From contig JBAUVS010000592.1 of NCBI GenBank assembly GCA_049583345.1, positions 1-33,914 on the forward strand: 33,914 nt of DNA, read 5' to 3'. The notes beneath the pieces were generated by a model. It ran no database searches, was not told the origin of the DNA, and saw only the letters and a list, made by a program, of their open reading frames with translations. Shown piece after piece: positions 10,816 through 31,963 of the stretch (its first letter is position 1; every line of letters starts with the position of its first letter). Made by a program: the position numbers and the translations under genes. The DNA comes from Woeseiaceae bacterium. GTDB taxonomy: Bacteria > Pseudomonadota > Gammaproteobacteria > Steroidobacterales > Woeseiaceae.

Positions 10816-11949
10816 TCAGTGCCGGCCGGGATACGGGAACTTCTCCACGGTCACTCTCTTGCCGGAGATCCTGTTCGTGCTGCTCGTTGTCGTGGCCATG
10901 AAGAGGGAATTGTAGATTGCCTCCTGTGTCGCCTCCGCGACGGCTTCGAACAGGGGCGACATACGATCGTTCGAAAGATCTTCGTAAGTCGCGACGTTCT
11001 CCCGGCGCCTTGCCGTCCGGCGCACGCTCTCGGCGACGGAGAAAGCGATCGCGTAGTCGCCGGATCCGTTCGAGAATCCTGCGCCCGTCCGTGCCAGGCC
11101 TGCGGATGCCCGCCGTGCCAGTCTCCTCAGGTTGCGGTCGGACAAGGGAGCGTCGGTCGCAACGATCATCATGATAGAACCTACCGAATCAGCGCCGGGC
11201 TGCTCGACCAGGGTCCCCATTCCGTAGTCGACGCCATTGATCGTCAGGCGGCCGCCGAAATTCGTCTGCACCAGGACCCCGACGGTGTAGCCGCCCTGCT
11301 CCGCGGGAAGAATCCGCGAGCTGGTGCCGATCCCGCCCTTCCAGCCGAAGGCCACCGTGCCGGTACCGGCACCGACGGCACCCTCGGCAACCGGTCCGCC
11401 GGACGCGTTCTCGATTGCTCTATAGATGTCTTTCGCTGTCAGCGCCCGGCCGCGAATGTCGTTGAGCCGGGAATCGTTTGTCTCTCCGACGATTGCGTTG
11501 ATCGATTTGACCTCTTCATTACCCGGCTGGACCAGCGTCCAGTCGAGTATCGCCTCTATGCCCGTAGCAACCGAAAGCGTATTGGTAAGCACGATCGGGG
11601 TCTCGATCTCGCCCAACTCGATCAGTTGAGTGCTGCCGGCCAGCTTGCCGAAACCGTTCGCGACATCCAGTCCCGCCGGTACGCGATCCTGGAACAGATT
11701 GCCGCCGTGGGGCAGAATCGCGGTCGCTCCGGTGCGGACGCTTTCGCCCTCCACGAGGGTCACGTGCCCGACCTTTACTCCCGCGACGTCGGTTATCGCA
11801 TTGAGCGGTCCCGGCGCATACACGCCCGGCGCAATGCCGAGATCGCGCGCCCGAACCCCGGTTTCGCCGGCGGCCGTCGCCCCGGCTGCCACGACAACGA
11901 GTCCAAACAGCCCGAAGCGGACAACCCTCTGCCGAAATGGTTTTCTCAT
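10816..11949 (-). CDS. P1/S58 family self-processing aminopeptidase (DmpA / BapA type), exported
   Basis: 377 aa with a signal peptide (FGLFGLVVVAAGATAAGE). Family blocks are ITDVAGVKVGHVTL, AILPHGGN, NAIVGETNDSRLNDI, VGAGTGTVAFGWKGGIGTSS (autoprocessing region), IMMIVATDAPL and NGSGDYAIAFS. Confidence 0.85.
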   Translation of the reverse strand: MRKPFRQRVVRFGLFGLVVVAAGATAAGETGVRARDLGIAPGVYAPGPLNAITDVAGVKVGHVTLVEGESVRTGATAILPHGGNLFQDRVPAGLDVANGFGKLAGSTQLIELGEIETPIVLTNTLSVATGIEAILDWTLVQPGNEEVKSINAIVGETNDSRLNDIRGRALTAKDIYRAIENASGGPVAEGAVGAGTGTVAFGWKGGIGTSSRILPAEQGGYTVGVLVQTNFGGRLTINGVDYGMGTLVEQPGADSVGSIMMIVATDAPLSDRNLRRLARRASAGLARTGAGFSNGSGDYAIAFSVAESVRRTARRRENVATYEDLSNDRMSPLFEAVAEATQEAIYNSLFMATTTSSTNRISGKRVTVEKFPYPGRH

Positions 11950-12038
11950 GATTCAGTCATCCTTCCGGCGGCATGCGCCGTCCGCGATTGGTCACGGATC
12001 GGGCGCCACACCAACCGGACGTTTTCCAATCTGTCACC

Positions 12039-12093
12039 GCTTGACCCGACCCCGGTATTCTATTATCTTGAACCAAAGGATAATAATTTGAAT
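12039..12093 (+). promoter_or_regulatory. Conserved promoter/operator module, copy B (upstream of the membrane-protein gene, divergent from the DmpA-type gene)
   Basis: Sequence GCTTGACCCgaccccggtATTCTATTATCTTGAACCAAAGGATAATAATTTGAAT. TTGACC (12041-12046) is followed by 17 nt and TATCTT (12064-12069). It has the same spacing and box order as copy A. Confidence 0.55.
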
Positions 12094-12112
12094 CGTTGCA
12101 GGGGGTAGCACC

Positions 12113-12652
12113 ATGTCCACTGATTCGCCCGTCGAAAGAATCCCGATGTGGCTTGCCGTCGCCTTGACGGTCGTCGCATCGATGCCCTTCGGCCTCTGGC
12201 TCGGCAAGTACAATTTCGCACTGTGGTGCTGTTTCATCGTGTGGGCGGAATATTTCGCTCTGGGAGCAAGCCCCGCGGCCCTGCGCCTGATCGTACCGAG
12301 TTTTTCCTACTCCGTTGTACTGACGGCCGTCACCCTTTGGGCCGTGCAACTGTTCGACTTCCTGCCCTCGCTCAGGACCGAGGGCGATCTCGCCGTGACG
12401 GTCGCTCTGTTCGCCGGCATCGCCTTGACCGTCTACACGATGCGGTACTCCAGGATCTTCCAGGATGGCTCCCTGCCCTTTTTCAATGGAATATCGATGG
12501 GGCTTGCAATCTATTTCACGGGCAGCTTCCCGGACTTCGGCGGCATCCTCCCGGCCGCGCTCGCCGCCGGTGCCTGGACCGTCCTGATGGGACTCTTCGG
12601 CTGCGCGTTGGGCGTATTCAACGTCTGGATTACTTTCCCCAGGCACCGTTAG
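12113..12652 (+). CDS. Small polytopic inner-membrane protein, possibly DUF1097 (YcdZ-like)
   Basis: 179 aa with about five hydrophobic helices and RBS GGGGG. The pattern LWCCFIVWAEYFALGA resembles the YcdZ family as I remember it. The family call is tentative. Confidence 0.6.
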   Translation: MSTDSPVERIPMWLAVALTVVASMPFGLWLGKYNFALWCCFIVWAEYFALGASPAALRLIVPSFSYSVVLTAVTLWAVQLFDFLPSLRTEGDLAVTVALFAGIALTVYTMRYSRIFQDGSLPFFNGISMGLAIYFTGSFPDFGGILPAALAAGAWTVLMGLFGCALGVFNVWITFPRHR

Positions 12653-12722
12653 TCATTCCCTCGCCTCGAGGTCCGACCGGCGGAAGCGGGTCAAGGGATT
12701 CCCGGTTCCGGTCCCGGGTACC

Positions 12723-13853
12723 TCAGGCATCACTGACGCCGTCCAGCAGCGGCTCGAGCCGCGGATATTCGGCGCCGTTCTCGGTGCACACGGCGAAATG
12801 CGCCTTCTCGGCGCCGGCGTACATCGCGACGCCGGCGTATTCACCGCGTTTGTTGAGCACGTAGAAGCGCAGATCGAACTTCGGCAGGCCGCGATCGTTG
12901 ATCAGGCGCTTCTCGACCGTGTTGGCCTTGACGCGCTTCAGGGCCGCGATCGCCGCGTCCTTGGGATGCTTTCCGCGCCGCATCTCCTCCACAATCAGGA
13001 AGGAGTTCAGGCCATACAGATTCGCTTCGCCCCGCCCGGTCGAACCCGCAGCGCCGACCTCGTTGTCGACGTACAGGCCCGCACCGAGGATCGGTGAATC
13101 CCCGACCCGGCCCGGAATCTTCCAGGCAAGGCCGCTCGTCGTCGTCACACCGCAAACGTCCCCCGAAGGATTGATCCCGTTGCAGTTGATCGTACCGTAG
13201 AAGCCCTCCGCGTCGATCAGTCCTTCGCGCACCATTTCCCGTGCCGCCCGCATGCCGGCCGCAATCCGCTCCGCCTCGCTCGGGTAGTGCCCCGGGTCCA
13301 CCCTGCGTTTCCATTCCAGCCATAGCTTGCGGGACGTGTCCGTGTTGAGATCGTCTTCGATCTCGAAGCCAACGTTTCTGGCGAAACGTTGCGCGCCCTC
13401 TCCTACGAGCAGGTGATGATCGGTCAGTTCCATTACGGCATGAGCCACATTCGAGGGCGTACGCACGCCTTCCAGGGCCGCGACACCGCCTGCCCGCCGC
13501 TTGGGGCCATGCATGACGCAGGAGTCGAGTTGCACGACGCCGTCGGCATTCGGCAGTCCACCGTATCCTACGCTGGTCTCCTCCGGATCGAGCTCGACGA
13601 TGTTAACGCCATGTATGAGCGATTCCAGCACATCGTCCCCTTCCTCCACCATGTGGCGGAAGGCCGTTTCCACGCAATTGGCGTCACCGCCGTTCTTGCG
13701 CGTATAGCCGTTTCCGGCCGAAATGATGACGGGTTTGGTGCGCCCGGTGACAACGGCAGGGGCTGCCTCGAGTACTCCTGCGGACGTTGCGGCGGCGAGG
13801 CCTGCAAGCGATCCCACGGTGATGAAGCCCCGTCGGCTGATTGTGTCGGTCAT
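12723..13853 (-). CDS. Ntn-hydrolase asparaginase family: glycosylasparaginase / isoaspartyl peptidase type, Tat-exported
   Basis: 376 aa with the twin-arginine leader MTDTISRRGFITVGSLAGLAAATSAG. The autoprocessing/nucleophile region is FYGTINCNG. Family blocks include TTTSGLAWKIPGRVGDSPILGAGLYVD and GAAGSTGRGE. RBS is GAGGAAG. Confidence 0.85.
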   Translation of the reverse strand: MTDTISRRGFITVGSLAGLAAATSAGVLEAAPAVVTGRTKPVIISAGNGYTRKNGGDANCVETAFRHMVEEGDDVLESLIHGVNIVELDPEETSVGYGGLPNADGVVQLDSCVMHGPKRRAGGVAALEGVRTPSNVAHAVMELTDHHLLVGEGAQRFARNVGFEIEDDLNTDTSRKLWLEWKRRVDPGHYPSEAERIAAGMRAAREMVREGLIDAEGFYGTINCNGINPSGDVCGVTTTSGLAWKIPGRVGDSPILGAGLYVDNEVGAAGSTGRGEANLYGLNSFLIVEEMRRGKHPKDAAIAALKRVKANTVEKRLINDRGLPKFDLRFYVLNKRGEYAGVAMYAGAEKAHFAVCTENGAEYPRLEPLLDGVSDA

Positions 13854-13878
13854 TTCTCTTCCTCACATAAGAAAATGC

Positions 13879-13914
13879 GCAGATATTCCGCGCCGCCGGG
13901 CACGGAATATCTGC
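13879..13914 (-). terminator. Perfect 12-bp hairpin between receptor 2 and the asparaginase-family gene (terminator or attenuator)
   Basis: GCAGATATTCCG (13879-13890) pairs with CGGAATATCTGC (13903-13914) around a 12-nt loop. On the minus strand it is followed by GCATTTTCTT. It lies 41 nt after the receptor 2 stop and 25 nt before the next start codon. Confidence 0.45.
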
Positions 13915-13954
13915 AAGGACCGAGGCAGGAAGCCTGTCGGTCAATCTTCTGCTT

Positions 13955-16627
13955 TCAGAACGAGACGTCCAGTCGTGCGTAGTAGGAACCCCCTTGATAC
14001 GGCGTTCCTTCTTTCCAGTACTGTATGCCGCGGTTGGTTTTCGGGTCGATCTTCTCCGGAACGGATTTCGGATAGTTGTCGAATACGTTATCCGCCCCGA
14101 TCGTCATTCGGATCGCGTCACTGATCTGATAGGCGGCGGATATGTCGATGAATACGTCCGAGGGGAGTTGGTCGACGATGTAGGATCCATCGGGATTCGT
14201 GTAGCCGAATGCCACTTTCTGTGCTCCCCACAATCGGCCCCGCGCTCCGAGTGTCAGTTTGTCGTTCAGGACGTAGTTTGCCGTCAGTACGGCGCGATGC
14301 GGCGGAGAGAACAACTCGGTTTGGAGATTTGTGATCTCGTCGGAGATTGCGGGATCGAATTTCGTTACGTCGGTCTTTACGTACGCGTACGCGAGTGACA
14401 GCGACAGTTGCGAGGAGAACAGATCCATCACGCGGGTGCCCACGACTTCCACGCCCTTCGTCGTGGTATTGAGGCCGTTGCCGTAGAATCTTGCTTCCGT
14501 CAGGAACGCCGCCCCGGGGAAGCCCGAATCGATCAACTCCTGAAACGCCGGAGCATAGGCCGGGTTCGATGCCTGATACCTTTGCGACAGCCGGATGCGA
14601 TCGTCGAGCTTGATCTGGAAAGCGTCGATCGTGATATCCGTGTAGTCGCCCGGCGTCCACACGAAGCCCAGTGAATAATTATTCGCTTTTTCCGCCTTTA
14701 GGGGAGACGCGCCCAACGCAATGGCCAGCGGATGGCTCGCGGGGAAGACGCCGCCATAGTTGACGGTGCCGCCGAAAAAGCCCGTAGTCAACTGCAGGTT
14801 GTCAATCTGGCCGAGCGACGGTGCGTGAAAACCGGTCGACACCGCGCCCCGGATCGCGAGGACATCCGGAATGAGTTGAAACCGTCCTGATACCTTCACG
14901 CTGGTGTTGTTGCCGAAATCCGAATAGTCCTCATAGCGAACTGCGGCGGTCAGGTTGAGTGCTTCGGTCACCTGCGCATCCAGGTCGACATAGGCAGCGT
15001 AACTGCTGCGCGTGGACTCGAAGAGCGCTGCAATCGGCGTTCCGGTGAAGCCGTTGGCGCCGACGGCAAGGTCTGATAACGGCCCCACCTTCCAGGAATT
15101 CTCCTCACCGTTGATGTTGTAATAATGTTCCCGGCGGTAATTCGCGCCGAACGAGATGAGCAGCGTGTCGATCGAGTCGGTCTTTACGGTATAGCCGAAG
15201 TCGGCATTGATTGCGCCTTCGATGTTGACGAGCCCGCCATTGTAGAAGCTCGTCTGCACGTTGGCGTAGTCGATGGAGCCGTCGGGGGCCATCGGTGCAC
15301 CGAGCGAAGAGTTTTGGGTGCCCCGGTTCCATATATCGACCCGGCTGCGGCCGAACGATCCCGACACGTCCCAGGTCAGCCCATTCGAACGTTCGCCGCG
15401 AACGCCGGCGTACGCGCCGAAGTCGGGGCCCTGAATCGTAATTCTGGGTGTGTATCCGGCCGGAAACGCCAGTTTTGGATCGTAGCCGACCGGCGCTGCG
15501 CCGTTTGTCGAGGTCGCGTTCGGGCCGTCCGCCAACAGGTAGGCGGCGTCGGCTGCGGCCTCGACGCCGATCAGGGCTTCGAGTTCAGGCAGTGTCAATT
15601 GGGTCGGGTTCATGTTGGAAGGAGGCGATCCGATACTGCCGTTTGGAAAGTGCAGCTCCGGGATGTCCGAACACGGCCGCAAACCGGGATGGTGGTGCGA
15701 GCCGCCCTCGCAATACAGGTTCGAGCGGTAGTTGGCCGTCTGCAGGTTGGAGATCTCGGCGAAATTGCCGAAGGTATATAGCTCAACGGATTCGGTGATG
15801 GGTATGGCCGAATTCCAGGTCACTTGCGTCATGTCCTGCGCGGTGATTCCGGCGTACTGCGCCTTCAATGGATCGATGTCGATCGTTACCCCTCTCCGCT
15901 CCCCGTCCGCAAGCATCGCAACCGCGTCGAGATGCGGCAGGTTTCTCTGGGTCGGGTCCTGCGAACTGTGCGATACAGTTACCGTGAGGAAGCCCTCGTC
16001 ATTCAGGAAATGAGTGCCGTATTTTCCGGCCACTGTGTACAGGGCTCCGTCGCCTTCGTAGTACTCGCTGTAGCCCGCACGCACGGACATGCCCTCCGAA
16101 GAATCCATGACGAGGTTGATCACGCCTGCGACTGCATCGGCACCATAGAGGGCGGATGCACCGTCGCGGAGTATCTCCACGTTACTCAGGCCGATCGTGC
16201 CGAAGGTGCTGACGTTCTGCTGCTGAATGCCGAGCTTGTTGACGATCGAGGATCGATGCACCCGTTTGCCGTTGAGGAGCAGCAGGATTTCACCGCCGTC
16301 GAGCCCGCGCAGATTCGTTTCTCTGGAAAAGGAATCCTGGTCCGACGATGATTCCCGATGCGCATAGTACGAGGGCGACACGTCCATGAGCGCATCCTTG
16401 ATGTCGGCCTGCGGCGTCTTTATCAACTCCGTTACCGGAATGACATCCACCGGTACGGTGGATTCCAATGCCGTCCTACCCTTGGCTCGCGTTCCGACGG
16501 AGACAATTACTTCCAGTACGTCCTTGTTGGCGGAATTTTCCGCCGGCTCGCCGGTTTGCTGTCCGGGCGCCGGGAAACTGGCGCCCAGCAGGGCGGCGCC
16601 GATGATACACAGTGCCTGCGTTCTCAT
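13955..16627 (-). CDS. TonB-dependent outer-membrane receptor 2
   Basis: 890 aa with the signal peptide MRTQALCIIGAALLGASFPAPG. Plug blocks are LEVIVSVGTRAKGRTALESTVPVDVI, NLRGLDG and VEILRDGASALYGADAVAGVINLV. The C-terminus is YYARLDVSF with a terminal Phe. Confidence 0.92.
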   Translation of the reverse strand: MRTQALCIIGAALLGASFPAPGQQTGEPAENSANKDVLEVIVSVGTRAKGRTALESTVPVDVIPVTELIKTPQADIKDALMDVSPSYYAHRESSSDQDSFSRETNLRGLDGGEILLLLNGKRVHRSSIVNKLGIQQQNVSTFGTIGLSNVEILRDGASALYGADAVAGVINLVMDSSEGMSVRAGYSEYYEGDGALYTVAGKYGTHFLNDEGFLTVTVSHSSQDPTQRNLPHLDAVAMLADGERRGVTIDIDPLKAQYAGITAQDMTQVTWNSAIPITESVELYTFGNFAEISNLQTANYRSNLYCEGGSHHHPGLRPCSDIPELHFPNGSIGSPPSNMNPTQLTLPELEALIGVEAAADAAYLLADGPNATSTNGAAPVGYDPKLAFPAGYTPRITIQGPDFGAYAGVRGERSNGLTWDVSGSFGRSRVDIWNRGTQNSSLGAPMAPDGSIDYANVQTSFYNGGLVNIEGAINADFGYTVKTDSIDTLLISFGANYRREHYYNINGEENSWKVGPLSDLAVGANGFTGTPIAALFESTRSSYAAYVDLDAQVTEALNLTAAVRYEDYSDFGNNTSVKVSGRFQLIPDVLAIRGAVSTGFHAPSLGQIDNLQLTTGFFGGTVNYGGVFPASHPLAIALGASPLKAEKANNYSLGFVWTPGDYTDITIDAFQIKLDDRIRLSQRYQASNPAYAPAFQELIDSGFPGAAFLTEARFYGNGLNTTTKGVEVVGTRVMDLFSSQLSLSLAYAYVKTDVTKFDPAISDEITNLQTELFSPPHRAVLTANYVLNDKLTLGARGRLWGAQKVAFGYTNPDGSYIVDQLPSDVFIDISAAYQISDAIRMTIGADNVFDNYPKSVPEKIDPKTNRGIQYWKEGTPYQGGSYYARLDVSF

Positions 16628-16704
16628 GTTGAACCCCCAACTTATTGGTATCGGCTTTCCGGCTTACGCGTGGATTTCGGATTCAAATTCGCGTCATACG
16701 GAAC

Positions 16705-16820: not shown

Positions 16821-17240
16821 TCACTCGTTTCGGGGTGCGGCCTGGCATTCCTCTCCGGAGACGTATCTCGCCAGTGCCTCAATCTCGGAATCACTCAGAC
16901 CAATCGCCTGGTCGATCATCAGACCTTTAGTCAGTGCGTCGATGACATAGTCCTTCGAGAATTTCGCCATCATTTCTCTGGTCGGTATGCCGGGCACGAC
17001 GTCATGGCATTTGGCACATCGCTGCTGGTACAAGGCCGCACCGGCCGACAGAGCTTCGGATTCGACAGTGGCCTTCGAGCGCTGGTCCCGGCCGCTGACC
17101 GAGTCGTAGTCTAACGGCGATCCGAGACGGACTTCGGTCCCATCGCAGCCCATACCCGTGTACGGCACTGCCGCAAGTACCAGGGCGGTAACGAGGATCG
17201 GTGTCCGGTGTGAGTGGCGCCTCCAAATCGGGTACATCAT
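16821..17240 (-). CDS. Exported monohaem c-type cytochrome
   Basis: I prefer the start at MMYPIWRR (ATG 17240), which gives a hydrophobic leader ILVTALVLAAVPYTGMGC. The haem motif lies in GAALYQQRCAKCHD (CxxCH). A distal Met region GLMIDQA is followed by LSDSEIEALARYV, typical of class I cytochromes c. Confidence 0.75.
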   Translation of the reverse strand: MMYPIWRRHSHRTPILVTALVLAAVPYTGMGCDGTEVRLGSPLDYDSVSGRDQRSKATVESEALSAGAALYQQRCAKCHDVVPGIPTREMMAKFSKDYVIDALTKGLMIDQAIGLSDSEIEALARYVSGEECQAAPRNE

Positions 17241-17489
17241 TCGCTTTGACTCCGGGCTTGCGGAAGTCTGCAGGGGCTCCGCGGCCGATTGTCGTGTAGT
17301 CGCGGCCAGACCCGTCGGCCCGTAAAACAGCATACGGCGAAGAGCGCTTGTGCTCGCTGCAACGACTGACAAGGATCAACAGGACATCGCGCAGAACATC
17401 CTGAGCATCGTCCTGCCATTTTTCTTTACTGCGGACTTCAGCAATGACTATACTGCCGCTAGTGTGTCCATTTCCGTCCGACGGCGTAG

Positions 17490-17504
17490 TTCAATCATAT
17501 TGAA
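17490..17504. promoter_or_regulatory. Palindromic operator candidate (copy E) in front of the XRE/cupin regulator gene
   Basis: TTCAATcatATTGAA is a perfect 6-3-6 palindrome. An AT-rich tail TATAAATAAAAATACTGGAAAT follows and resembles the tail of copy C (GATAAAATAATGGGAAT). A candidate promoter TTTACT (17425-17430)-N18-TATACT (17449-17454) lies upstream, so the palindrome would sit in the transcribed leader. Confidence 0.45.
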
Positions 17505-17532
17505 TATAAATAAAAATACTGGAAATAGTCAA

Positions 17533-18087
17533 GTGACCATAGGCGAACGGCTTAGAAAAATCAGGAGAACTCAGGGACGCACCCTCAAAGAAATCGCCGG
17601 CAACTCCAATATCACCGTCAGCTTGCTATCCAAGATCGAGAACAACAAGTCGCAACCTCCGATCGCAACGCTTACCCGCATTTCCAGCGCTCTGGGAGTC
17701 AGCACTTCATCGCTGCTTAGCGACGATGATGAACCCGGAACGATTTTCGTCCCGGCGAAGAACACGGCGCAGACGACACGCGCCGATAAGGGCTATGAGT
17801 TTTTTAGCTTCGCGACGCAGCGGCCGTCGAAACTGATGGACGTATTCCTGTTCTCGGCAAAGAAAGGAGAAGTGACCCCGCAAGCCATGTGTCACAGCGG
17901 TGAAGAATTCATCTACGTCCTGAGCGGCAAGATGGAATATTCAGTCGGCAGTGCGCAATTTACGCTAAAAGCCGGAGATGCGCTGTATTTTGATTCAGAG
18001 GCGGATCACGACCTGCAGCCGCTTACCAAGGAAGTAAAATACCTCGCAGTGTTCTGTTCCCGGCCGAAGAATAAGAAGAAGAAATAG
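17533..18087 (+). CDS. XRE-family HTH transcriptional regulator with C-terminal cupin sensor domain
   Basis: The GTG start at 17533 gives 184 aa. The HTH region is IGERLRKIRRTQGRTLKEIAGNSNITVSLLSKIENNKSQPPIATLTRISSALGV and the cupin region is HSGEEFIYVLSGKMEYSVG...LKAGDALYFDSEADHDL. The upstream part of the track ORF is AT-rich non-coding. By eye the gene is less GC-rich than its neighbours. Confidence 0.85.
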   Translation: MTIGERLRKIRRTQGRTLKEIAGNSNITVSLLSKIENNKSQPPIATLTRISSALGVSTSSLLSDDDEPGTIFVPAKNTAQTTRADKGYEFFSFATQRPSKLMDVFLFSAKKGEVTPQAMCHSGEEFIYVLSGKMEYSVGSAQFTLKAGDALYFDSEADHDLQPLTKEVKYLAVFCSRPKNKKKK

Positions 18088-23498: not shown

Positions 23499-24830
23499 CT
23501 ATTCTCCGACTACTTCTCGCCAGGCCGTATCGAAACTGATGGCGAGCTGCGCGTCTTCGTCACCAATATTCGTTGCATTGTGGTGCACACCCTGCGGAAT
23601 GCTTATCGTGTCACCGGCGGACATTTCCACCGTTACCCCGTTCATCGAATGAAGGATCTTGCCGCTCAAGACGTGGAGCACCTCGCTGCAGTTCGGATGG
23701 AAGTGCACCGGGTTCGCTTTTCCGGGCAGAACCGTCGCCAGACCCACCGTCATCGAGTTTGAGTTGCCCAGCGCACCGGAGACGTACCACTCGATGCGCC
23801 CCCACGGCAGCTCGACAAGCTCGTAATCGTCTGGCTTACTGACGACAGCGTTAGTTATCCGCGTCGATTCACCGCCGGGAAACGACAGCTTGTTTGCCGC
23901 GTCCGGCTTCGCGTTTGTCGTGGCGCCCGCGGGCGGTACATCCTTGCCGGCCGTCCATAAGATTGCATTCAATAGTGCTGTCCTCGCCTGCACATCATCC
24001 CAACTTTTTTGGAAGTGACCGCCGCTGTATGCGAACGATCGGCCCCCATTCTTCCGTTCGTAGGCCCACGCGACTACATAGGCCGCGGGTGGAATGGATG
24101 CCGTCGGTACGCCTTCCAGATAGTGGATAGGCAATTCGGCTGTCCAGACCGGTGTTATCTTGCCGTTGGAATTATTGAATTCCAGCGTCGGATAGTACTC
24201 ATCGTAATGCACGAAGTTTTCGAGTCCGCGCAGGACCGGGTGATTACCAGTGCCGACAATCAACTCCGCGGGTTTCGTGGTCCGGTCGTGCTTGCCGTAA
24301 CGTACGCCGCCGAGCCATTGTTGCATCGGTACGCCAGTGTCCCCTTTTGGAAAGGTAAACGACTGGTGTAACGCGACCAGTCCCACTCCGCGATTCATCA
24401 GCTGTGCGAACACGTCGCGCTTTTTGGGGTCGAGCAACGGGTTTGATCCATCTCCATTGAAATAGAGGACGACAGTGGCTGCATGCTGTAGCGATTCATC
24501 GCCGGGCCAACCATACGGGTGCGCGTCGATTGTCAGATCCGAATACGCCGCCAGTTGGGGTGACTGTTTCAGCATCTCCTCGATGAACTTCACGCCATGT
24601 GGCCAATCGTGCTCGCCCGGCCTGCTCGTCCAATCGCCGCCGATGAGTACGATCCTGTTGCCTCGTTCCGCAGCATGGGCCGGGATCGTCGCGACGACTA
24701 CGGCCGCAATCACGGCAAGTGAGACAATCGCAACCCGCAAGATCGCCAAATAAGACGGCCACTCGCGATCCGTCACGGGAGCGAAGCTGGCCGGCAAATG
24801 CTGCCTATGATTGCGGGATCGTCGTGGCAT
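23499..24830 (-). CDS. ThuA-like domain fused to a C-terminal metal-binding cupin; exported (paralog 2)
   Basis: 443 aa with RBS AGGAG 9 nt upstream. The hydrophobic leader ends in AHAAE. It is collinear with paralog 1 over its whole length and ends identically in WREVVGE. The cupin motifs are HFHPNCSEVLHVLSG and GDTISIPQGVHHNATN. Confidence 0.8.
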   Translation of the reverse strand: MPRRSRNHRQHLPASFAPVTDREWPSYLAILRVAIVSLAVIAAVVVATIPAHAAERGNRIVLIGGDWTSRPGEHDWPHGVKFIEEMLKQSPQLAAYSDLTIDAHPYGWPGDESLQHAATVVLYFNGDGSNPLLDPKKRDVFAQLMNRGVGLVALHQSFTFPKGDTGVPMQQWLGGVRYGKHDRTTKPAELIVGTGNHPVLRGLENFVHYDEYYPTLEFNNSNGKITPVWTAELPIHYLEGVPTASIPPAAYVVAWAYERKNGGRSFAYSGGHFQKSWDDVQARTALLNAILWTAGKDVPPAGATTNAKPDAANKLSFPGGESTRITNAVVSKPDDYELVELPWGRIEWYVSGALGNSNSMTVGLATVLPGKANPVHFHPNCSEVLHVLSGKILHSMNGVTVEMSAGDTISIPQGVHHNATNIGDEDAQLAISFDTAWREVVGE

Positions 24831-24967: not shown

Positions 24968-26365
24968 TCAGGGCGAAAGCAGCTTGCCAATGGTCGAATC
25001 GTCCATCACACCTCTGGCCCGCAAAACGTCGAGTATCGATTCGCCGGACGTTTCCGCTTGTTTGACAATTTCAGCGGCCGCATCGTATCCGATCAGAGGC
25101 GTCAACGCGGTTGCCAGAGCGGAACTCCTCAGCAATAGTTCGCGACATCGCTCTGCATTGGCCACGATGCCGGTGACACAACGATCCCGCAAGGCGACTG
25201 CCGCTCTCTCGAGCAACTCGATCGACTCCAGGATTTTCCAAACAATGACAGGCTGCATGGCGTTGAGCTGCAGCTGCCCGGCATCGCACGCGAGCATGAT
25301 CGTCAAATCGTTCACCATAACAGTAAAGCAGGCCTGATTGACGGCTTCCGGGATGACCGGATTTACCTTGCCCGGCATGATTGATGATCCGGCCTGCACC
25401 TTGGGCAAGCGGATTTCTCCCAGCCCGGTACGTGGACCGCTGCAAAGCAGCCGCAGGTCGTTTGCTACCTTCGACAACTTCACAGCGACACGCCTCAGCA
25501 TGCTCGAACATAGCAGCATCGCGCCCGGATCGGACGTCGCCTCGACCATCGACGCAGACGGCCGGATACTGATGCAGGAAATTTCGGAGAGATGATTGAT
25601 CACTTTCGCACGATACTGGTTCGACGCATTGATCCCGGTGCCGATCGCTGTGCCGCCCAGATTTACTTCGGCAAGCAGGTTCTCCGCTTCTCGCAGCCGT
25701 TCGGCATCTTCCCCGAGCATTACCGCAAACGCCCGGAATTCGTCGCCGAGAAGCATCGGTACTGCATCCTGTAACTGCGTGCGGCCTACCTTGACGATTT
25801 CGTCAAATTCGACCGCTTTGCACAGGAACGTCTCGGTGAGTTCCACAAGACGCGACCTCAGGTCCCGTAAATTCCGTATGACCGTGATACGCGCCGCCGT
25901 CGGGTAAACGTCGTTCGTGGACTGCGAACGGTTGACGTCGTCGATTGGGTGAAGACGGTCGTAGGCGCCGTATGGGTAACCCAATGACTTCAATGCGAGG
26001 TTCGCGATGACCTCGTTGACGTTCATATTGGTCGAGGTCCCCGCCCCGCCCTGAAGGACGTCGATCGGGAAAGCTCGGCCGTGTCGGCCCGCGGCAATCT
26101 CGTCGCAAGCCAGGCATATCGCTTCGCAAGTGGCCGCCGACAGCAGTCCCGTATCGTAATTTGCCAGCGCAGCCGCTTTCTTGACCAGCGCGAACGACTC
26201 CACGAAATGTCTGAGCGATCCGATTGTCCGCACGGTAAAAGTGAAGTTCTCGAGGGCGCGTATGGTGTGGACGCCATAGCAATCGTCGCCGGCGACCGTA
26301 ACAGGGCCGAGTCCGTCGTCCTCGATGCGCGATTCTGCCTCCATGCCTGACGCCGCCTTGCTCAT
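24968..26365 (-). CDS. aspA: Aspartate ammonia-lyase (class II fumarase/aspartase family)
   Basis: By my recollection it is collinear with E. coli AspA. Shared blocks are RIEDDGLG, YGVHTIRALENF, GGAGTSTNMNVNEV, SQSTNDVYPTA, GRTQLQDAVPM, EVNLGGTAIGTG, the SS-loop signature GSSIMPGKVNPV and AGQLQLNAM. The start is uncertain; candidates are 26413 TTG, 26389, 26365 and 26344. Confidence 0.9.
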   Translation of the reverse strand: MSKAASGMEAESRIEDDGLGPVTVAGDDCYGVHTIRALENFTFTVRTIGSLRHFVESFALVKKAAALANYDTGLLSAATCEAICLACDEIAAGRHGRAFPIDVLQGGAGTSTNMNVNEVIANLALKSLGYPYGAYDRLHPIDDVNRSQSTNDVYPTAARITVIRNLRDLRSRLVELTETFLCKAVEFDEIVKVGRTQLQDAVPMLLGDEFRAFAVMLGEDAERLREAENLLAEVNLGGTAIGTGINASNQYRAKVINHLSEISCISIRPSASMVEATSDPGAMLLCSSMLRRVAVKLSKVANDLRLLCSGPRTGLGEIRLPKVQAGSSIMPGKVNPVIPEAVNQACFTVMVNDLTIMLACDAGQLQLNAMQPVIVWKILESIELLERAAVALRDRCVTGIVANAERCRELLLRSSALATALTPLIGYDAAAEIVKQAETSGESILDVLRARGVMDDSTIGKLLSP

Positions 26366-26493: not shown

Positions 26494-28047
26494 TCAGCGG
26501 CCGGAACGCTCACCAAACAGCGCGGCGATATGCGCTGCCTGTGGCGGCGCGGATACGAGAGATACGAGAGTAGTGACGGCAGCGGACACGATCCCACCGT
26601 ACGTTGCACGGATGAAAGGATTCAGGAACTGCGGGTCCCACGTGCCGAAACTGACAGTATCCTCGCCGATCAGTACGGAAAGAACCGACGCACCGGCAAA
26701 GACCAGGGCTCCGACGAAAAATCCGGCGATCGCCGCAGGGCGCGTTACTCGCGCCCAGACCGCCCCGACCAGCATCGGTCCGGTGAGCGCCGCCGTCATT
26801 CCTCCGATGCCGAGCCAGACCACGATTGCGATGTTGGTCTTGCGCAAGATCCACGCCATGGCGACGCTTAGTATGAGGATAATTGTCGTGGAAACGCGGC
26901 TGATCCTGAGAGCGACGCGGTCGATATGCTCCGCCGACTTGCCTTTCGCCAAAGTACAACGGTAAATGTCGTTGGCGAATATCTGGGACGCGGCGACGGC
27001 CAGCCCGTCGGCGGTCGACATCACGGCGCACAGAATCCCGGTACCAAGAAATGCAGCCAACCAGGTCGGCAACACGGTGACGAACAGCGCCGGAATCGCG
27101 TTGTTCGGACTCTGATCACCCACTGTGAGCACATCTCCGAGTATCGCTCGGGCCGACAGGCCCCCGAGTGCGAGTGCCGGCAGGATCAGCCCCAGCACGA
27201 AAGTAATGGTCAGAAACTTCTTGCGATTTGCAGGCGAATCCAGCGCCCAAATCTTGTTGCCGATATGCGGAAGCATGCCCAATGGCACGTGTGAGAACCA
27301 GATGCAGAACACCGCCCACCAGCCCCCTACGATGAGGCTTTCGGGGTTGAAGATCTTGACCGTGTTCGGGTCCAGAGTTGCCAACTGTTCGAGAACTCCG
27401 TCACCGCGGCGGTCAATACCGAACCCCGTCAGAAACAATCCTATGACGACGAAGGAGATCGCGACCATGATCGTCCCCTGCACTCCGTCCGTCAGAATGT
27501 CCGAGTGCGCGCCGCCGAGAACTATGTAAAGCAAGAGAATGCCGGAAGTGACGACGAGGCCGTAGAACTCCGGCATGCCGAGCAACTGTTGGAACATCAC
27601 GCTGCCCGCGAGCAGCTGCGCGGCCAGGTGAAAGAGTAGCAGTAGCGAGAATATCGACGAGGCGACTCTCAGAAAATCGGATTGGTAACGGTGTCCGAGA
27701 TACTCCGGGATGGTCCTCGTGCCAAAGTTTTCGCCCGCATGCGCAACGATCCTGGCGCAAATGACGATGCCCGTATAGACGCCGAAGGGATATACGATCG
27801 CGAACCACAATCCGGCGACGCCGTCGCTGTAAACGATGCCGGGTATTCCGAGAAAGGTTGCACCGCTTGCAGTCGTCGCGACAACCGCGAACGCAAGGAA
27901 CCAGGGTCCATAGCTCTTGCGCGCCGTCGCGAAGTCGTCGCTATTGCGGACGCTCCGCATTCCGACGAAGCCTGCAACGACCATGATGCAGACATACATG
28001 GCAAGGAAACACCAGCCCCATACGTGCAGATTTTGGCTAGCACCCAT
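26494..28047 (-). CDS. Sodium:solute symporter family (SSF) transporter
   Basis: 517 aa with about 13 hydrophobic helices. The N-terminal block DDFATARKSYGPWFLAFAVVATTASGATFLGIPG is typical of SSF/PutP-like carriers. Confidence 0.85.
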   Translation of the reverse strand: MGASQNLHVWGWCFLAMYVCIMVVAGFVGMRSVRNSDDFATARKSYGPWFLAFAVVATTASGATFLGIPGIVYSDGVAGLWFAIVYPFGVYTGIVICARIVAHAGENFGTRTIPEYLGHRYQSDFLRVASSIFSLLLLFHLAAQLLAGSVMFQQLLGMPEFYGLVVTSGILLLYIVLGGAHSDILTDGVQGTIMVAISFVVIGLFLTGFGIDRRGDGVLEQLATLDPNTVKIFNPESLIVGGWWAVFCIWFSHVPLGMLPHIGNKIWALDSPANRKKFLTITFVLGLILPALALGGLSARAILGDVLTVGDQSPNNAIPALFVTVLPTWLAAFLGTGILCAVMSTADGLAVAASQIFANDIYRCTLAKGKSAEHIDRVALRISRVSTTIILILSVAMAWILRKTNIAIVVWLGIGGMTAALTGPMLVGAVWARVTRPAAIAGFFVGALVFAGASVLSVLIGEDTVSFGTWDPQFLNPFIRATYGGIVSAAVTTLVSLVSAPPQAAHIAALFGERSGR

Positions 28048-28189
28048 CGTTCCGCCGGACAGCTTTCAGGTACCAATGCTGCACCAATGCTCCCCGCATG
28101 TGCCGGCATGCCCTGACGATCCGAGCCCCCCTTTTGGCACGAATCATACTCGATCACCGCTTTCGATGTACTCAAGTCGAGGTTGGCCG

Positions 28190-28978
28190 TCAAGAGATCG
28201 GAAGCAACCGGTCAGGAGAAGCGGCATTGACCATTGCCCTCGCCAGGACCTCCGTGGGGTTCACCAGCAGGTTGCCGAAGTGGCCTTCCGAGCCGGCAAA
28301 GGCGAGCGGGATCTCGGTACAACCGAGGATCACGCTGTCCGCGTTGCAGCGATCGACGAGATACCGCACCGTATCGAACATTGCACGTTTTGCCTTTTCC
28401 GTCACGGGGTAACTGGCCGCCTTGACACCGTACGAGCGATCGACAATCGCGTCGTGCAACCGTCGCTGCAGCTCATTGTCGGGCAAAACGATCTCGATGT
28501 CCGTGCCATCGAAATGCGACTGATACACGGCTGAGCTTATTGTGCCAGTGGTTGCGAGCAATCCCACGCGGCGTTGTTTGGCGGCAAGATCAACTACGAA
28601 GTCACGTACCGATGCGATCATGTCGATGAGCATCACGTCGAGGCCATTGTCGGTTATCAGCTTCAGCAACACGGAATAGATAGGCAGTGCGTGCGCCGTA
28701 TTGCAGGGCATGCCGATCACCGTCGCTCCCGCGGCGGCAAGCTCCCTCACGATTCCGAAGATCGGGTATGCCGGATTCTCACCGCCGTGCAACAGATATT
28801 CGGTGCGATCCTGAATTCCACAGCTTCGCGAGACGAGGATCACCGACAGATGGTCCTGGTCCCGTTGCGCTCGTGTATTCCTGTAGACGCGTTGCAGGAG
28901 ATCGACGCCCGCAGCAGGCCCCATGCCTCCGACGATGCCCAGCACCGCGCCGGGGTCAGCCTTTTCCATCGTCGGCAT
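28190..28978 (-). CDS. Aspartate/glutamate racemase family protein, aspartate racemase type (PLP-independent)
   Basis: 262 aa. Blocks are LGIVGGMGPAAG, the first catalytic Cys in MPCNTAH, and the second catalytic Cys in ILGCTEIPL. Confidence 0.85.
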   Translation of the reverse strand: MPTMEKADPGAVLGIVGGMGPAAGVDLLQRVYRNTRAQRDQDHLSVILVSRSCGIQDRTEYLLHGGENPAYPIFGIVRELAAAGATVIGMPCNTAHALPIYSVLLKLITDNGLDVMLIDMIASVRDFVVDLAAKQRRVGLLATTGTISSAVYQSHFDGTDIEIVLPDNELQRRLHDAIVDRSYGVKAASYPVTEKAKRAMFDTVRYLVDRCNADSVILGCTEIPLAFAGSEGHFGNLLVNPTEVLARAMVNAASPDRLLPIS

Positions 28979-29069
28979 GCCTGTCCAGACTCAGCCGAAC
29001 TGCGGCCGGGCTGGCGCCGAATTCCGCACCCGTTGCGCAGATACTATAGCTACGAATTGAAGCCCCCTT

Positions 29070-30329
29070 TTACTTCGAAGCGGACTGCTGCTTGTCGGCC
29101 CGATTCCGGTAAGCAAGAATGGTCACCGCCAGTTCGTCCGTAAATGCCTTTAATTTCGGGCCGTTCGGGCCCCCTCCGGAAGTGTTGGTCTGCGCCGCGA
29201 TCACGATTTCGAGATCGGCGAGGATCGTCAGCTGACTATGCCCACCAACGCTGCCGCCACTGTGTGAAATCACCCGGATTCCTTTTTCGTCCGGGGACAG
29301 GTCGTCTCGAACGCGGCTGTACCAGCCCAACGCGTAACCGTCAGGGTCCTTACCGCCAGGTGCGCGTGCAACAGGTGTAAACAGTAGCTGGCGGCTCGCG
29401 TCCGAAAGATACGCCTCGTCCAATACCGTCAGTCCGGCCCGAACCAGATCGCTGGGCGTCGAGAGGAATCCGCCACTGGCCCATTTGACACTGAGATTCA
29501 CCGGATACGCTGGTCCATATTTGCCCTGACCGGATACGTAGAAGCTGACCCGATCGGGCATGGATGCGTCCTTGCGATCCGGTTGTGTGGCCTTCATTCC
29601 GGCCGGCGAGAATACTTCGTTACGCATCAGCGTCAGGTAATCCATTCCCGATGCCGCTTCCAGGACTGCGCTAAGGAGGTTGTAACCGTATGAGCTGTAT
29701 CGAAAGTCCGTACCCGGATCAAAGAGCAAATCATCGTACTCGAATACCTCGAGTGCGTCCGATACGGTGTCGAACTGCCGGTCGAGGTAGAAGTCGTTCG
29801 GCGGCCATCGCAGGATACTGTTGCGATAGTGGCGGATACCTGCCCGGTGGCTCGCCAACAGACGAGATGTAATTGGCGTATTCGATCGTGGATAGTCGGG
29901 CAGGTAGTCATGCACCGGACGGTCCAGGTCCAGCGTCCCCGTTTCCACAAGACGCGCCATTGCCATGGAAGTCAGGGATTTCGAAATGCTGCCCACCCTG
30001 TACTGACTATGGACCGTTGCCGGCACTCTGCGCTCGATGTCCGCATACCCGTGAGTTCCCGCCCAGACGAGCTTTCCGTCGATCGCCACCGCCACCGAAA
30101 CCGACGGCGCACTCCATTCTTGTAGCTTGGCTTTCGAGAGTCCATCCAGATTGGCGAGCAAGCCCTCGTACCCTGATTCATACGAGACCTGTTCGCCGGC
30201 GTCGGCCCAGGCCTCAGGCAGCCGCTCATGAGGCACCTGCCACGTCCAGTAAAAATGCCCCAGCGCGGCAAGATACAGGAGTATCGTGGTTCCAATGGCC
30301 GTGCCGAGGACCTTCCCGATTCTGATCAT
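29070..30329 (-). CDS. Beta-lactamase-fold serine hydrolase (penicillin-binding / D-aminopeptidase / esterase class), N-terminally membrane-anchored
   Basis: The start MIRIGKVLG (ATG 30329) has GGAGG 6 nt upstream, so I prefer it to the GTG at 30344. The hydrophobic anchor is GTAIGTTILLYLAALG and the SxxK motif is YRVGSISKSLTS. YSSYGYNLL (YxN-like) and HSGGSVGG (KTG-equivalent region) follow. Confidence 0.8.
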   Translation of the reverse strand: MIRIGKVLGTAIGTTILLYLAALGHFYWTWQVPHERLPEAWADAGEQVSYESGYEGLLANLDGLSKAKLQEWSAPSVSVAVAIDGKLVWAGTHGYADIERRVPATVHSQYRVGSISKSLTSMAMARLVETGTLDLDRPVHDYLPDYPRSNTPITSRLLASHRAGIRHYRNSILRWPPNDFYLDRQFDTVSDALEVFEYDDLLFDPGTDFRYSSYGYNLLSAVLEAASGMDYLTLMRNEVFSPAGMKATQPDRKDASMPDRVSFYVSGQGKYGPAYPVNLSVKWASGGFLSTPSDLVRAGLTVLDEAYLSDASRQLLFTPVARAPGGKDPDGYALGWYSRVRDDLSPDEKGIRVISHSGGSVGGHSQLTILADLEIVIAAQTNTSGGGPNGPKLKAFTDELAVTILAYRNRADKQQSASK

Positions 30330-30518
30330 GGTTGCCTCCGCCACGCCTCTCCGGTGAGGTGCCCAGGGCCGGGTCGGCGGTGACCGGTGCGCGGCGATTG
30401 TGTGGAATTGGAGTCTGATCGAACAACCCGGTCGCTAACGACCGTGTAACCTGAGCGGTGACACCCGATGACAGGGAGGTAGCAAAGCGACCCTAAAATA
30501 GCAGTCATCGCGTTTCGC

Positions 30519-31751
30519 TTAGTGACCAGCAAGGTCTGCAGCTATCCGTTCGTTTTCCCGGAGTACTCGCAGGAGATTTCCACCCCAGATCTTTGCTATG
30601 TCCGTTTTCGAATATCCGCGTGCCACCAGTTCTCGCGTCACGTTAGGGGTCTGCGAGGCGTCTTCCCAGCCGATAATGCCGCCGCCGCCCTCGAAGTCCG
30701 ATGCGATTCCCACGTGATCCACGCCGATTAATTTGGCGACATAGTCGATGTGATCGACGAGATCGGAAACTGTGGCCTTTGGATATTTCGTATAGATTTC
30801 GGCGTTCAGGCGACGATTGTATGCGTCGTAGATCTCATCCGGGACGGTGAGCAGCATTTCATCCGACTCGATGCCAAACTCCTCCCTGAGTTCTTTCACG
30901 TCCACCGACTTTTGAACATCCTGGTGGTGCAGGAATGCGCCGAGCGCGACGACCTGAACAACACCACCATTGGCCTTTAAGACTTGTAACTGTTCATCGT
31001 CGAGGTTTCTCGGGTGGTCGACGAGGCGCCTCGCCGCAGAGTGTGAGGCGATAACCGGTGCTTTTGAAAGCCGAGTCGCCTTAATCATCGTTTCCCGGGA
31101 TGCGTGCGACACATCCACCATCATGCCCAATCGGTTCATCTCGACAATGACTTGCTCTCCAAAAGGGCTCAGGCCATGGTGTTCAGCCTCGCTGTCGCCA
31201 AACTCGGCACTTGGTTGTGCACTGTCTCCAATGTCGTTGTGCCCATTGTGTACAAGCGTCATATATCGGGCGCCACGATTGAAGTACACCTGCAATAGGC
31301 CGATATCCTTACCGATGGCGAAACCATTCTCGATGCCGATGAGCGCGACTTTTCGGCCCGATTCTGCGATTTCGATCACTTCGTCGGCGGAACGCGCCAG
31401 CGAGATTTTGTCCCGGGAGCCCTCCAGCATGCGATCGATGGCCCGAAACTTCTTGTCTGCGGCTTTTATCGCCGCCTGATACTGCCAGTCGGTTCGGCAG
31501 GTCTGCTCAACGAAGACGATGAAGAACGCGGCATCGAGGCCGCCCTGATACATTTTGGGAATATCGACGTGAAGACGGCTGGCGTGCCCCGGGTCCACGA
31601 GGGGAGTGGCGTAGTTCCAGGGAATGTCGACGTGTGTATCCAGAGTCAGGATATGTGCGTGCGGGTCGGCAACGCCCGCCTGCTGTGCCTGGGCTATTGA
31701 CATTGCGATCAGCATCGCAGGAAGCACGGCTAAGCATCGTCTTTGCGGCAT
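30519..31751 (-). CDS. M19 family membrane/renal-type dipeptidase, exported
   Basis: The start MPQRRCLAVLPAMLIAMSIAQAQQ (ATG 31751) gives a signal peptide. Blocks are LDTHVDIP, GGLDAAFF, IGIENG, RYMTLVHNGHNDIGDS, MMVDVSHAS, PVIASHSAAR and GIASDFEGGGG. Confidence 0.85.
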   Translation of the reverse strand: MPQRRCLAVLPAMLIAMSIAQAQQAGVADPHAHILTLDTHVDIPWNYATPLVDPGHASRLHVDIPKMYQGGLDAAFFIVFVEQTCRTDWQYQAAIKAADKKFRAIDRMLEGSRDKISLARSADEVIEIAESGRKVALIGIENGFAIGKDIGLLQVYFNRGARYMTLVHNGHNDIGDSAQPSAEFGDSEAEHHGLSPFGEQVIVEMNRLGMMVDVSHASRETMIKATRLSKAPVIASHSAARRLVDHPRNLDDEQLQVLKANGGVVQVVALGAFLHHQDVQKSVDVKELREEFGIESDEMLLTVPDEIYDAYNRRLNAEIYTKYPKATVSDLVDHIDYVAKLIGVDHVGIASDFEGGGGIIGWEDASQTPNVTRELVARGYSKTDIAKIWGGNLLRVLRENERIAADLAGH

Positions 31752-31921
31752 TGTCGTTCCCTTGCACCTGCCATTACGGTTTGGATTCCGGCGCCCCGTT
31801 ACCTGCGGAATGCGGGCCGACCGTCCGGTCGGACCGAACAAGCGCACGTATCAGCCACAATCGCCATCAGCTATAGCCTGAGGACAAAAGTCGCGTTTGT
31901 GCTAAGAAATTATAGCAGGTT

Positions 31922-31963
31922 GCATTTAGTTCAAGATATTGTAATCATGATCTTGGGTCAAGC
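31922..31963 (-). promoter_or_regulatory. Conserved promoter/operator module, copy D (heads the long minus-strand gene array)
   Basis: The minus strand reads GCTTGACCCaagatcatgATTACAATATCTTGAACTAAATGC. TTGACC (31961-31956) is followed by 17 nt and TATCTT (31938-31933), the same geometry as copies A and B. A perfect TATAAT also lies just downstream (31914-31909). Confidence 0.55.

Follow-up and report, generated by a model that had tools for sequence, protein, structure and literature searches.

The subject of this analysis is a 33,914-nt stretch of DNA from a Woeseiaceae bacterium (assembly GCA_049583345.1, contig JBAUVS010000592.1, positions 1–33,914 of the forward strand), which as a whole is called here the window. 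Within it we studied the interval 10816–31963, for which an earlier inspection of the sequence (the original prediction) had proposed the TonB-dependent uptake of D-aspartyl and beta-aspartyl peptides and their degradation to fumarate. The window proteins were assigned to families by Pfam and NCBIfam profile searches, and leader peptides were judged by inspecting the N-termini. The interval is best explained as a lineage-conserved TonB-dependent catabolic locus composed of three parts. Parts A and C hold the genes of an M19 dipeptidase, a LACTB-like peptidase, a racemase, an SSF symporter, an aspartase, TonB-dependent receptor 2, an N-terminal nucleophile (Ntn) amidohydrolase, an S58 aminopeptidase and receptor 1. 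Part B consists of six genes, about one third of those of the locus, encoding two ThuA-cupin proteins, a 599-aa propeller protein, a cytochrome c, a UPF0261 protein and a PEP_hydrolase-like protein.

The long open reading frames (ORFs) listed between 10816 and 31847 lie on the minus strand, except for those of a regulator and of one small membrane protein. The features are given below in the order of transcription of the minus strand:

31933–31961 (−): sigma-70-like promoter match upstream of the M19 gene, TTGACC-17-TATCTT, 9/12 (consensus match only)
30519–31751 (−): M19 dipeptidase, secreted (Pfam, 337.9 bits against a cut-off of 26)
29070–30329 (−): LACTB-like SxxK serine peptidase, membrane-anchored (human LACTB, 180 bits)
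28190–28978 (−): two-Cys racemase independent of pyridoxal phosphate (PLP), aspartate/cysteate racemase family (TIGR00035)
26494–28047 (−): SSF-family sodium:solute symporter (Pfam, 172 bits)
24968–26344 (−): aspartate ammonia-lyase-type enzyme (PRK12273)
23499–24830 (−): secreted ThuA + metal-cupin protein, copy 2, Sec-type leader (Pfam)
22126–23340 (−): UPF0261 protein, cytoplasmic, kinase family, DTK motif (Pfam, NCBIfam)
21238–22077 (−): PEP_hydrolase-like TIM-barrel protein, cytoplasmic (Pfam, 398 bits)
19884–21176 (−): ThuA + metal-cupin lipoprotein, copy 1 (Pfam, N-terminus)
18088–19887 (−): 599-aa lipoprotein, predicted eight-bladed propeller (AlphaFold2 model, Foldseek)
17533–18087 (+): HTH_3 + cupin regulator of PuuR-like architecture, divergent from the cytochrome c gene (Pfam/NCBIfam)
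16821–17240 (−): small c-type cytochrome with CAKCH motif (PF13442)
13955–16627 (−): TonB-dependent receptor 2, 890 aa, plug and barrel domains
13878–13915 (−): GC-rich hairpin with 17-bp stem and T-rich tail, between the receptor 2 stop and the Ntn start (scan for terminator-like structures)
12723–13853 (−): Ntn amidohydrolase, glycosylasparaginase-like, with a twin-arginine translocation (Tat) motif (Asparaginase_2, Pfam)
12113–12652 (+): 179-aa membrane protein with several hydrophobic spans, weakly DUF1097-like (sequence inspection, Pfam)
10816–11949 (−): S58/P1 aminopeptidase (DmpA/BapA family), Sec-type leader (Pfam, 374.5 bits)
8422–10722 (+): TonB-dependent receptor 1, 766 aa, plug and barrel domains, convergent with the S58 gene and just outside the start of the interval

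The ten genes from M19 to the 599-aa protein form one co-directional run. The families named in the original prediction were recovered by Pfam and NCBIfam, and the coordinates place the SSF gene between the racemase and lyase genes, as it had said. Its claim that the four peptidases carry Sec, Tat or anchor leaders, and the racemase and aspartase none, agrees with the N-termini: the M19 protein begins with a Sec-type leader (MPQRRCLAVLPAMLIAMSIAQA/QQ), the Ntn enzyme with the twin-arginine sequence SRRGFIT and the SxxK protein with a single membrane span or anchor helix, while the racemase, the lyase, the UPF0261 protein and the PEP_hydrolase-like protein are leaderless. Leaders of the lipoprotein type are found on one ThuA-cupin and on the 599-aa protein. 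On the other hand, the statement that the genes of the interval converge on aspartyl substrates left out eight genes, namely those of the two ThuA-cupins, the UPF0261 protein, the PEP_hydrolase-like protein, the 599-aa protein, the cytochrome c, the HTH-cupin regulator and the 179-aa membrane protein.

A sigma-70-like site does lie where a promoter had been predicted (31961–31933), and promoter-like sites occur on both strands within 17425–17532, between the cytochrome c and regulator genes. The terminator scan gave no predicted terminator separating parts A and B, and the hairpin at 13878–13915 could be a candidate partial terminator. Promoter and terminator matches are, however, no more numerous than in shuffled sequence, and the operon boundaries are therefore only presumed.

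Predicted hydrolases, racemase and lyase

Of the new findings, the homology of the SxxK hydrolase to LACTB speaks most strongly for the D-aspartyl idea. The beta-lactamase fold, which the original prediction had compared with that of the Ochrobactrum D-aminopeptidase, is confirmed, and the closest solved relative is human LACTB, with homology over the full domain (E 6.7e-52, 180 bits); homologues of the window protein also carry the Joint Genome Institute (JGI) name LACTB. Ser114, Lys117 and Tyr211, which are invariant among 19 homologues, correspond to LACTB Ser164, Lys167 and Tyr323, and the motifs GSISKSLT and RYSSYGYN align with LACTB. Human LACTB was reported in 2025 to be a D-Asp-selective endopeptidase, which cuts after D-Asp and is much weaker on L-Asp; it was discovered through its resemblance to the bacterial D-aspartyl endopeptidase paenidase, and its activity needs the Tyr alongside the Ser-x-x-Lys motif (PMC12148432). 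The window enzyme shares with these S12-family SxxK enzymes the full domain, the Ser-x-x-Lys and Tyr residues and a predicted position on the extracytoplasmic side of the membrane. It differs in being a bacterial protein with one N-terminal span, and a D-Asp preference and filament formation are only presumed by homology.

The assignment of the M19 protein to the renal dipeptidase family is borne out by its domain and by its zinc ligands. In an HMMER alignment to DPEP1 (chain 9h0b_B), the counterparts of all five ligands (His20, Asp22, Glu125, His198, His219) and of Asp288 are kept, so that the M19 fold and an intact binuclear zinc site are shared with DPEP1, Sco3058 and the Caulobacter protein 2RAG. 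M19 enzymes accept L-Xaa-D-Xaa dipeptides, and Cummings and colleagues are said to have found in 2010 that Sco3058 prefers L-Arg-D-Asp. The best solved match is 3B40, PvdM, which the window protein resembles in its periplasmic location, its link to receptors and an extra lobe. PvdM is a non-hydrolytic M19 member whose homologues are reported to adjoin TonB-dependent receptors almost always and, in some cases, periplasmic flavoproteins (PMC9305348). However, at the positions occupied by H/D, E and H in the window protein, PvdM has S/I, L and Q. Since its His, Asp, Glu, His and His ligands and Asp288 are kept, unlike those of PvdM, the window protein is likely to be an active dipeptidase.

Membership of the S58 protein in the DmpA/BapA family is equally clear, and its Gly-Ser self-processing site (VG/SIMMIVATDAPL) aligns with that of its best solved relative, the uncharacterised archaeal protein 2DRH, annotated as a 'D-aminopeptidase'; BapA and DmpA follow.

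As for the Ntn enzyme, the original prediction had grouped it with both the isoaspartyl peptidase IaaA and glycosylasparaginase. The scores favour the latter, with 181 bits against the Flavobacterium glycosylasparaginase and 94 against IaaA-type enzymes, and only 89.8 bits on the NCBIfam IaaA equivalog PRK10226, whose cut-off is 567. Alignment to 1P4K indicates that the Thr221 nucleophile is kept together with Arg249 and Asp252, the Arg/Asp pair which in glycosylasparaginase and IaaA holds the free alpha-amino and alpha-carboxyl groups of the aspartyl moiety. Besides its Tat leader, the window enzyme differs from these relatives in having the processing site YGT in place of HDT and, apparently, in lacking the sugar-contact residues: the N-terminus of the Flavobacterium enzyme is, as we assume, LSTWNFG, and in a by-eye alignment its sugar-stacking Trp11 and Phe13 presumably correspond to Gly and Gly in the stretch ISAGNGY. 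We read this protein as a putative beta-aspartyl amidase of glycosylasparaginase ancestry.

The racemase passes the generic model TIGR00035; among solved structures, the Pyrococcus aspartate racemase is closest to it. Cys92, Cys220, Arg58 and Lys186 are invariant and align with the Pyrococcus enzyme, in which the residues matching Arg58 and Lys186 are, as we take it, those that bind the side-chain carboxylate. The two catalytic Cys and the Arg/Lys pair agree with the original assignment as an aspartate racemase, but the best-scoring NCBIfam model is that of the cysteate racemase CuyB (172.5 against a cut-off of 190). That the substrate is Asp would follow from the gene context only. In a neighbour-joining tree, the window racemase lies nearer to S58-linked and Desulfovibrionaceae (CuyB-like) sequences than to the aspartase-linked clade. 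We also considered a cysteate pathway of the CuyB-CuyA type, which involves the same racemase family. CuyB is usually accompanied by a PLP lyase, and this candidate was rejected because the window contains no CuyA-type (PALP-family) gene; the CuyB cut-off is missed as well.

The lyase had been called an aspartate ammonia-lyase, and its PRK12273 score of 647 (cut-off 510) places it in the aspartase subfamily; with 566, it falls short of the 681 demanded by the stricter TIGR00839. The SS-loop signature GSSIMPGKVNP and the motif GRTQLQDAVPM are both present.

A precedent for a catabolic aspartate racemase is provided by the marine strain SM1926, in which such an enzyme is induced 104-fold by D-Asp (PMC6965332), and this makes the same role plausible here. 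As in SM1926, a PLP-independent racemase would channel D-Asp into L-Asp metabolism, and the pairing of racemase and aspartase recurs in clusters with an SDF-family transporter in Paraburkholderia, Leisingera and Clostridium. The present locus differs from both in its SSF carrier, in the clade of its racemase, in its four secreted hydrolases and in its two receptors.

Conservation of the locus and distribution of Part B

A search of 5.8 billion clustered proteins yielded only two close relatives of the racemase (77–79% identity), after which identity drops to 47%. These relatives lie on contigs in which the ten genes from M19 to the 599-aa protein still form one run. Overall, three related families of contigs share the complete gene order (L086/L087, L088=L001 and L002–L004), whose proteins are 55–97%, mostly 78–97%, identical to those of the window; in L086, a 205-kb contig with a 97%-identical 599-aa protein, and in L088 the whole order is kept down to the S58 gene and the convergent receptor. 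The locus is therefore a real conserved unit, so far within one narrow lineage only.

The original prediction had suggested checking the synteny of the trio racemase, aspartase and M19. A racemase alignment was used to search one genome for each GTDB species, which gave 80 loci, and these were then compared with all window proteins by tblastn. No racemase in any species representative exceeds 43% identity to that of the window, and an M19 gene adjoins the racemase in none of the 80 loci. Pairwise links, on the other hand, do recur. A co-oriented aspartase homologue (44–55% identity) adjoins the racemase in five of the 80 loci (Paraburkholderia, Leisingera, an alphaproteobacterial metagenome-assembled genome (MAG) and two Clostridium), all five with an SDF-family transporter. 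An S58 homologue (42–57% identity), likewise co-oriented, adjoins it in seven others without aspartase, belonging to Bacteroidota, Chloroflexota, Planctomycetota and an unclassified MAG (L008, L016, L020, L022, L027, L029 and L079). In L008 and L020, a gene for an S12 D-peptidase-like protein of beta-lactamase fold, whose nearest solved relatives include ClbP and alkaline D-peptidase, lies between the S58 and racemase genes. With a locus holding about 20 genes and a genome hardly more than one such gene, chance alone should produce fewer than 0.5 neighbours in 80 loci (a rough estimate, not a computed statistic), and we therefore regard both pairwise links as real. In the proteobacterial SDF-racemase-aspartase loci L039, L045 and L053, a second, very divergent gene belonging to the Asp/Glu racemase family (21–24% identical) stands immediately upstream of the racemase (around 9100–10700).

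Part B shows a different distribution. The 599-aa protein has neither a Pfam nor a PDB sequence match, and a metagenome scan with this protein as the only query found nothing. Its family is large: homologues are 49–66% identical, and most have a fused C-terminal cytochrome c domain (PF13442), often together with a 3-keto-disaccharide-hydrolase domain. The AlphaFold2 model (predicted local distance difference test, pLDDT, 89) is an eight-bladed propeller that resembles pyrroloquinoline quinone (PQQ) quinohemoprotein dehydrogenases; the top Foldseek matches are quinohemoprotein alcohol dehydrogenases (TM ~0.53, 12–15% identity), a likeness of fold only. The two ThuA-cupins are 61% identical to each other and have the complete metal-binding cupin motif HxH..E..H; a structure model built from two sequences was unusable (pLDDT 44). 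The UPF0261 protein matches both domains of its family (Pfam, NCBIfam) and has the motif SFDTKGKE with the ATP-contact Lys (DTK). The sole characterised UPF0261 member, MarK, is an ATP-dependent kinase in which this Lys contacts ATP (PMC12624787). Of the relatives of the PEP_hydrolase-like protein, only Mll9387 (PDB 2P10), itself uncharacterised, has a solved structure. Part B thus appears to combine periplasmic proteins of an oxidation type with a cytoplasmic kinase-family protein and a TIM-barrel protein.

Elsewhere, these genes are found together without any peptidase. In L090/L091 (propeller 66% identical), the set comprises UPF0261, PEP_hydrolase, a GMC/DAO-type flavoprotein, ThuA-cupin, propeller and cytochrome c; the same set is broken up by insertion sequences in L093 (54%); and in L177 the module sits on a conjugative element, between relaxase and coupling-protein genes, along with a sigma-54 activator that has a PEP_hydrolase-like sensor domain. 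L089 (propeller 61%) has a receptor, the Ntn enzyme (69%), the HTH-cupin regulator (67%), ThuA-cupin, propeller, cytochrome c, UPF0261 and PEP_hydrolase, followed by a flavoprotein, a DUF1097 protein, an M20/M28 peptidase and an SDF transporter, and lacks racemase, aspartase, M19, S58 and LACTB-like genes. From this recurrence we conclude that Part B is self-contained, mobile and more widely conserved than the rest of the locus, and that Part B with receptor 2, the Ntn enzyme and the regulator is its oldest recognisable unit.

A sister locus, L094 (ENA ERZ25039549 contig_12346, 1–11720), comes from the same sample as L086. It contains a ThuA-cupin, a homologue of the gene at 3357–4586 of the window (68%), HupE/UreJ, a rotamase, a receptor-1-like TonB-dependent receptor and an NhaC-family carrier. 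Its LACTB-like gene (68% identical) is two genes away from a classical IaaA-type Asparaginase_2 gene with an HGGAG motif, and the receptor 1 homologue (73% identical) is three genes from the LACTB-like gene with the IaaA-type amidase between them, so that the three lie within ~7.5 kb. By homology, this set of a D-aspartyl-endopeptidase-like, an isoaspartyl-peptidase-type and a receptor protein is what the original prediction would lead one to expect, and it again links ThuA-cupins to the cluster.

Possible substrates of the locus

The protein families, the catalytic residues, the leader peptides and the gene order with its conservation are established; from them we infer every substrate and step of the following route. 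Parts A and C would serve the salvage of peptides or peptide-like compounds with non-canonical (D- or beta-linked) aspartyl residues, a reading to which we give a probability of roughly 0.45. The substrate would be brought in by a TonB-dependent receptor; in the periplasm, the membrane-anchored LACTB-like enzyme would cleave after D-Asp; the S58 aminopeptidase and the M19 dipeptidase would trim the fragments, and the Tat-exported Ntn amidase would open beta-aspartyl bonds, either in N4-substituted Asn or in isoaspartate (isoAsp). The products would then be taken up through the SSF carrier, D-Asp would be converted to L-Asp by the racemase, and aspartase would yield fumarate and ammonia. The simplest account of the data thus amends the pathway first proposed, with a LACTB-like enzyme in the committing role, an Ntn enzyme of glycosylasparaginase ancestry and a racemase whose substrate is read from context. 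On the whole, the original prediction is supported in part. The idea of a dedicated aspartyl-peptide route gains from the LACTB homology, the zinc ligands, the Cys pair, the racemase genes that adjoin aspartase or S58 genes elsewhere and the sister locus L094, and it had ignored Part B, which may either process the non-aspartyl part of the same substrate or belong to a second pathway under the same regulator. In a further version, which we consider rather unlikely, the system would feed on spontaneously damaged protein, that is, on peptides with racemised or isomerised Asp, with the LACTB-like enzyme in the committing step and Part B handling a further adduct or conjugate.

Several observations weigh against the salvage of aspartyl peptides. 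Part B stands inside the ten-gene run and outside the aspartyl pathway, and its combination with receptor 2, the Ntn enzyme and the regulator is common to L089, which has none of the other aspartyl genes. The trio of racemase, aspartase and M19 is confined to this lineage. The Ntn enzyme is, by its scores, nearer to glycosylasparaginase than to isoaspartyl peptidases; cysteate racemases are equally close to the window racemase; and the aspartase-linked racemases found elsewhere belong to another clade, 33–37% identical. The SSF symporter reaches no NCBIfam equivalog and has no assigned substrate, and we know of no SSF member that carries Asp. A scan with the LACTB-like alignment gave 80 more distant metagenome loci, none of which holds any other window gene, so that the LACTB-like subfamily shows no wide synteny. 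Finally, the intergenic gaps of 90–190 bp leave room for several transcription units.

In the main rival reading, the primary substrate would be an N4-substituted Asn or another beta-aspartyl conjugate with a sugar- or polyol-like half, for instance a glycosyl-asparagine or a glycopeptide remnant. Receptor 2 would import the conjugate, the Ntn enzyme would free L-Asp, Part B would oxidise and phosphorylate the other moiety, and the peptidases, racemase and aspartase would be later, lineage-specific additions. Glycosylasparaginase is indeed the closest solved relative of the Ntn enzyme; receptor, Ntn, regulator and Part B are shared with L089, where an M20/M28 peptidase and an SDF transporter join them; the propeller model resembles PQQ dehydrogenases, and the frequent fusion of its homologues to cytochrome c and 3-keto-disaccharide-hydrolase domains, the co-occurrence of ThuA and GMC-type flavoproteins in sugar-like catabolism and the kinase family of UPF0261 all point the same way. 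The Salmonella fra locus for fructose-asparagine follows a similar logic, in that it combines an asparaginase-type enzyme in the periplasm with a transporter and a kinase in the cytoplasm and sets aspartate free; its protein families are unrelated to those of the locus, which has no deglycase, and the likeness is one of analogy only. We give this possibility a minority chance, as the apparent Gly/Gly at the sugar-stacking positions and the YGT processing site of the Ntn enzyme speak against it, Part B occurs without Ntn or receptor in L090 and L177, no glycoside hydrolase is present within the operons, and the LACTB-like peptidase, the racemase and the S58 enzyme are left unaccounted for. Another candidate is a generic scavenging of D-peptides, with racemase and aspartase merely nearby. 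In its favour, some members of the S58, S12 and M19 families act on D-Ala and other D-residues, and the S58-racemase pairs of Bacteroidota, Chloroflexota and Planctomycetota come without aspartase. It is nevertheless unlikely: the closest characterised relative of the SxxK enzyme is D-Asp-selective, the racemase belongs to a family for acidic substrates (Asp/cysteate), aspartase and a putative beta-aspartyl amidase share the same conserved cluster, and the Pfam results for the window show neither a racemase for alanine or glutamate nor a D-amino-acid oxidase or a muropeptide enzyme.

The best solved match of the M19 protein, together with the genomic company of PvdM homologues and with the best NCBIfam match of receptor 1, a siderophore-receptor model that stays under its cut-off (for receptor 2, no NCBIfam model attains its cut-off), could suggest that the M19 protein, the receptors and the periplasmic redox proteins recycle or degrade a peptidic metallophore or siderophore built of D- and L-amino acids. 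The zinc site lost in PvdM-type proteins is, however, kept in the window M19, no biosynthetic, Fur-related or iron-release genes were seen in the window, and aspartase and racemase indicate catabolism, which makes this explanation highly improbable. It is also quite improbable that there is no common substrate at all and that three unrelated units are adjacent simply as the compared contigs are close relatives. The full arrangement is found only at 77–97% identity, Part B is independently mobile and the gaps are long; yet the ten genes all run in the same direction, no terminator is predicted where part A meets Part B, and partial combinations re-occur independently, with Ntn, receptor and Part B in L089 and LACTB-like, Ntn-type, receptor and ThuA-cupin genes in L094. 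Degradation of cyanophycin, polyaspartate or microcystin was also considered and set aside: the Pfam results contain no cyanophycinase (S51), PahZ-type or Mlr-type gene.

D-Asp and isoAsp build up in aged protein and peptidoglycan. All the enzyme families concerned and TonB-dependent catabolic loci as such are already known, and the combination around Part B is plausibly undescribed: a literature search found no description of this gene combination, nor of a route from extracellular D- or beta-aspartyl peptides. In seawater and sediment pore water, D-Asp is among the main D-amino acids (PMC6965332), and its turnover is relevant to carbon and nitrogen cycling. For free D-Asp, breakdown by way of a racemase is already known; a route for D- or beta-aspartyl peptides would fill a gap and, if true, would provide a biological role for bacterial D-aspartyl endopeptidases of the LACTB type, together with enzymes that can be tested. 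The locus offers a coherent, testable hypothesis on the turnover of damaged aspartyl peptides, resting entirely on what can be deduced from sequence, and a tractable context for Part B as a whole, two of whose families have almost no biochemistry.

Minor features of the window

The 179-aa membrane protein matches DUF1097 with an E-value of 0.005, under the cut-off, and is called as a gene in L086, L087 and L088; set against the DUF1097 gene of L089, it gave no significant match. A 229-aa ORF on the opposite strand (11957–12646, minus) has a non-coding look. This ORF, that at 10795–12108 (plus), which overlaps the S58 gene on the opposite strand, and that at 32599–33564 (minus) are Arg/Gly/Pro-rich, of low complexity and without family match, and are probably artefacts of the ~60% G+C content. 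Upstream of receptor 1, the region 1203–7941 encodes a GH97 protein, an alpha/beta-hydrolase-like protein without clear family, a PhoD-like phosphatase and a DUF3604 protein; no evidence ties these genes to the locus, except for the hydrolase-like gene with its 68% homologue in L094. At the other end, an open frame (32503–33914, plus; >410 aa) with a signal peptide and a coiled-coil-like N-terminus exits the window, preceded by a small, weakly DUF2946-like ORF (32232–32591); the counterpart of this open frame in L002 is probably a 441-aa gene that has no Pfam match.

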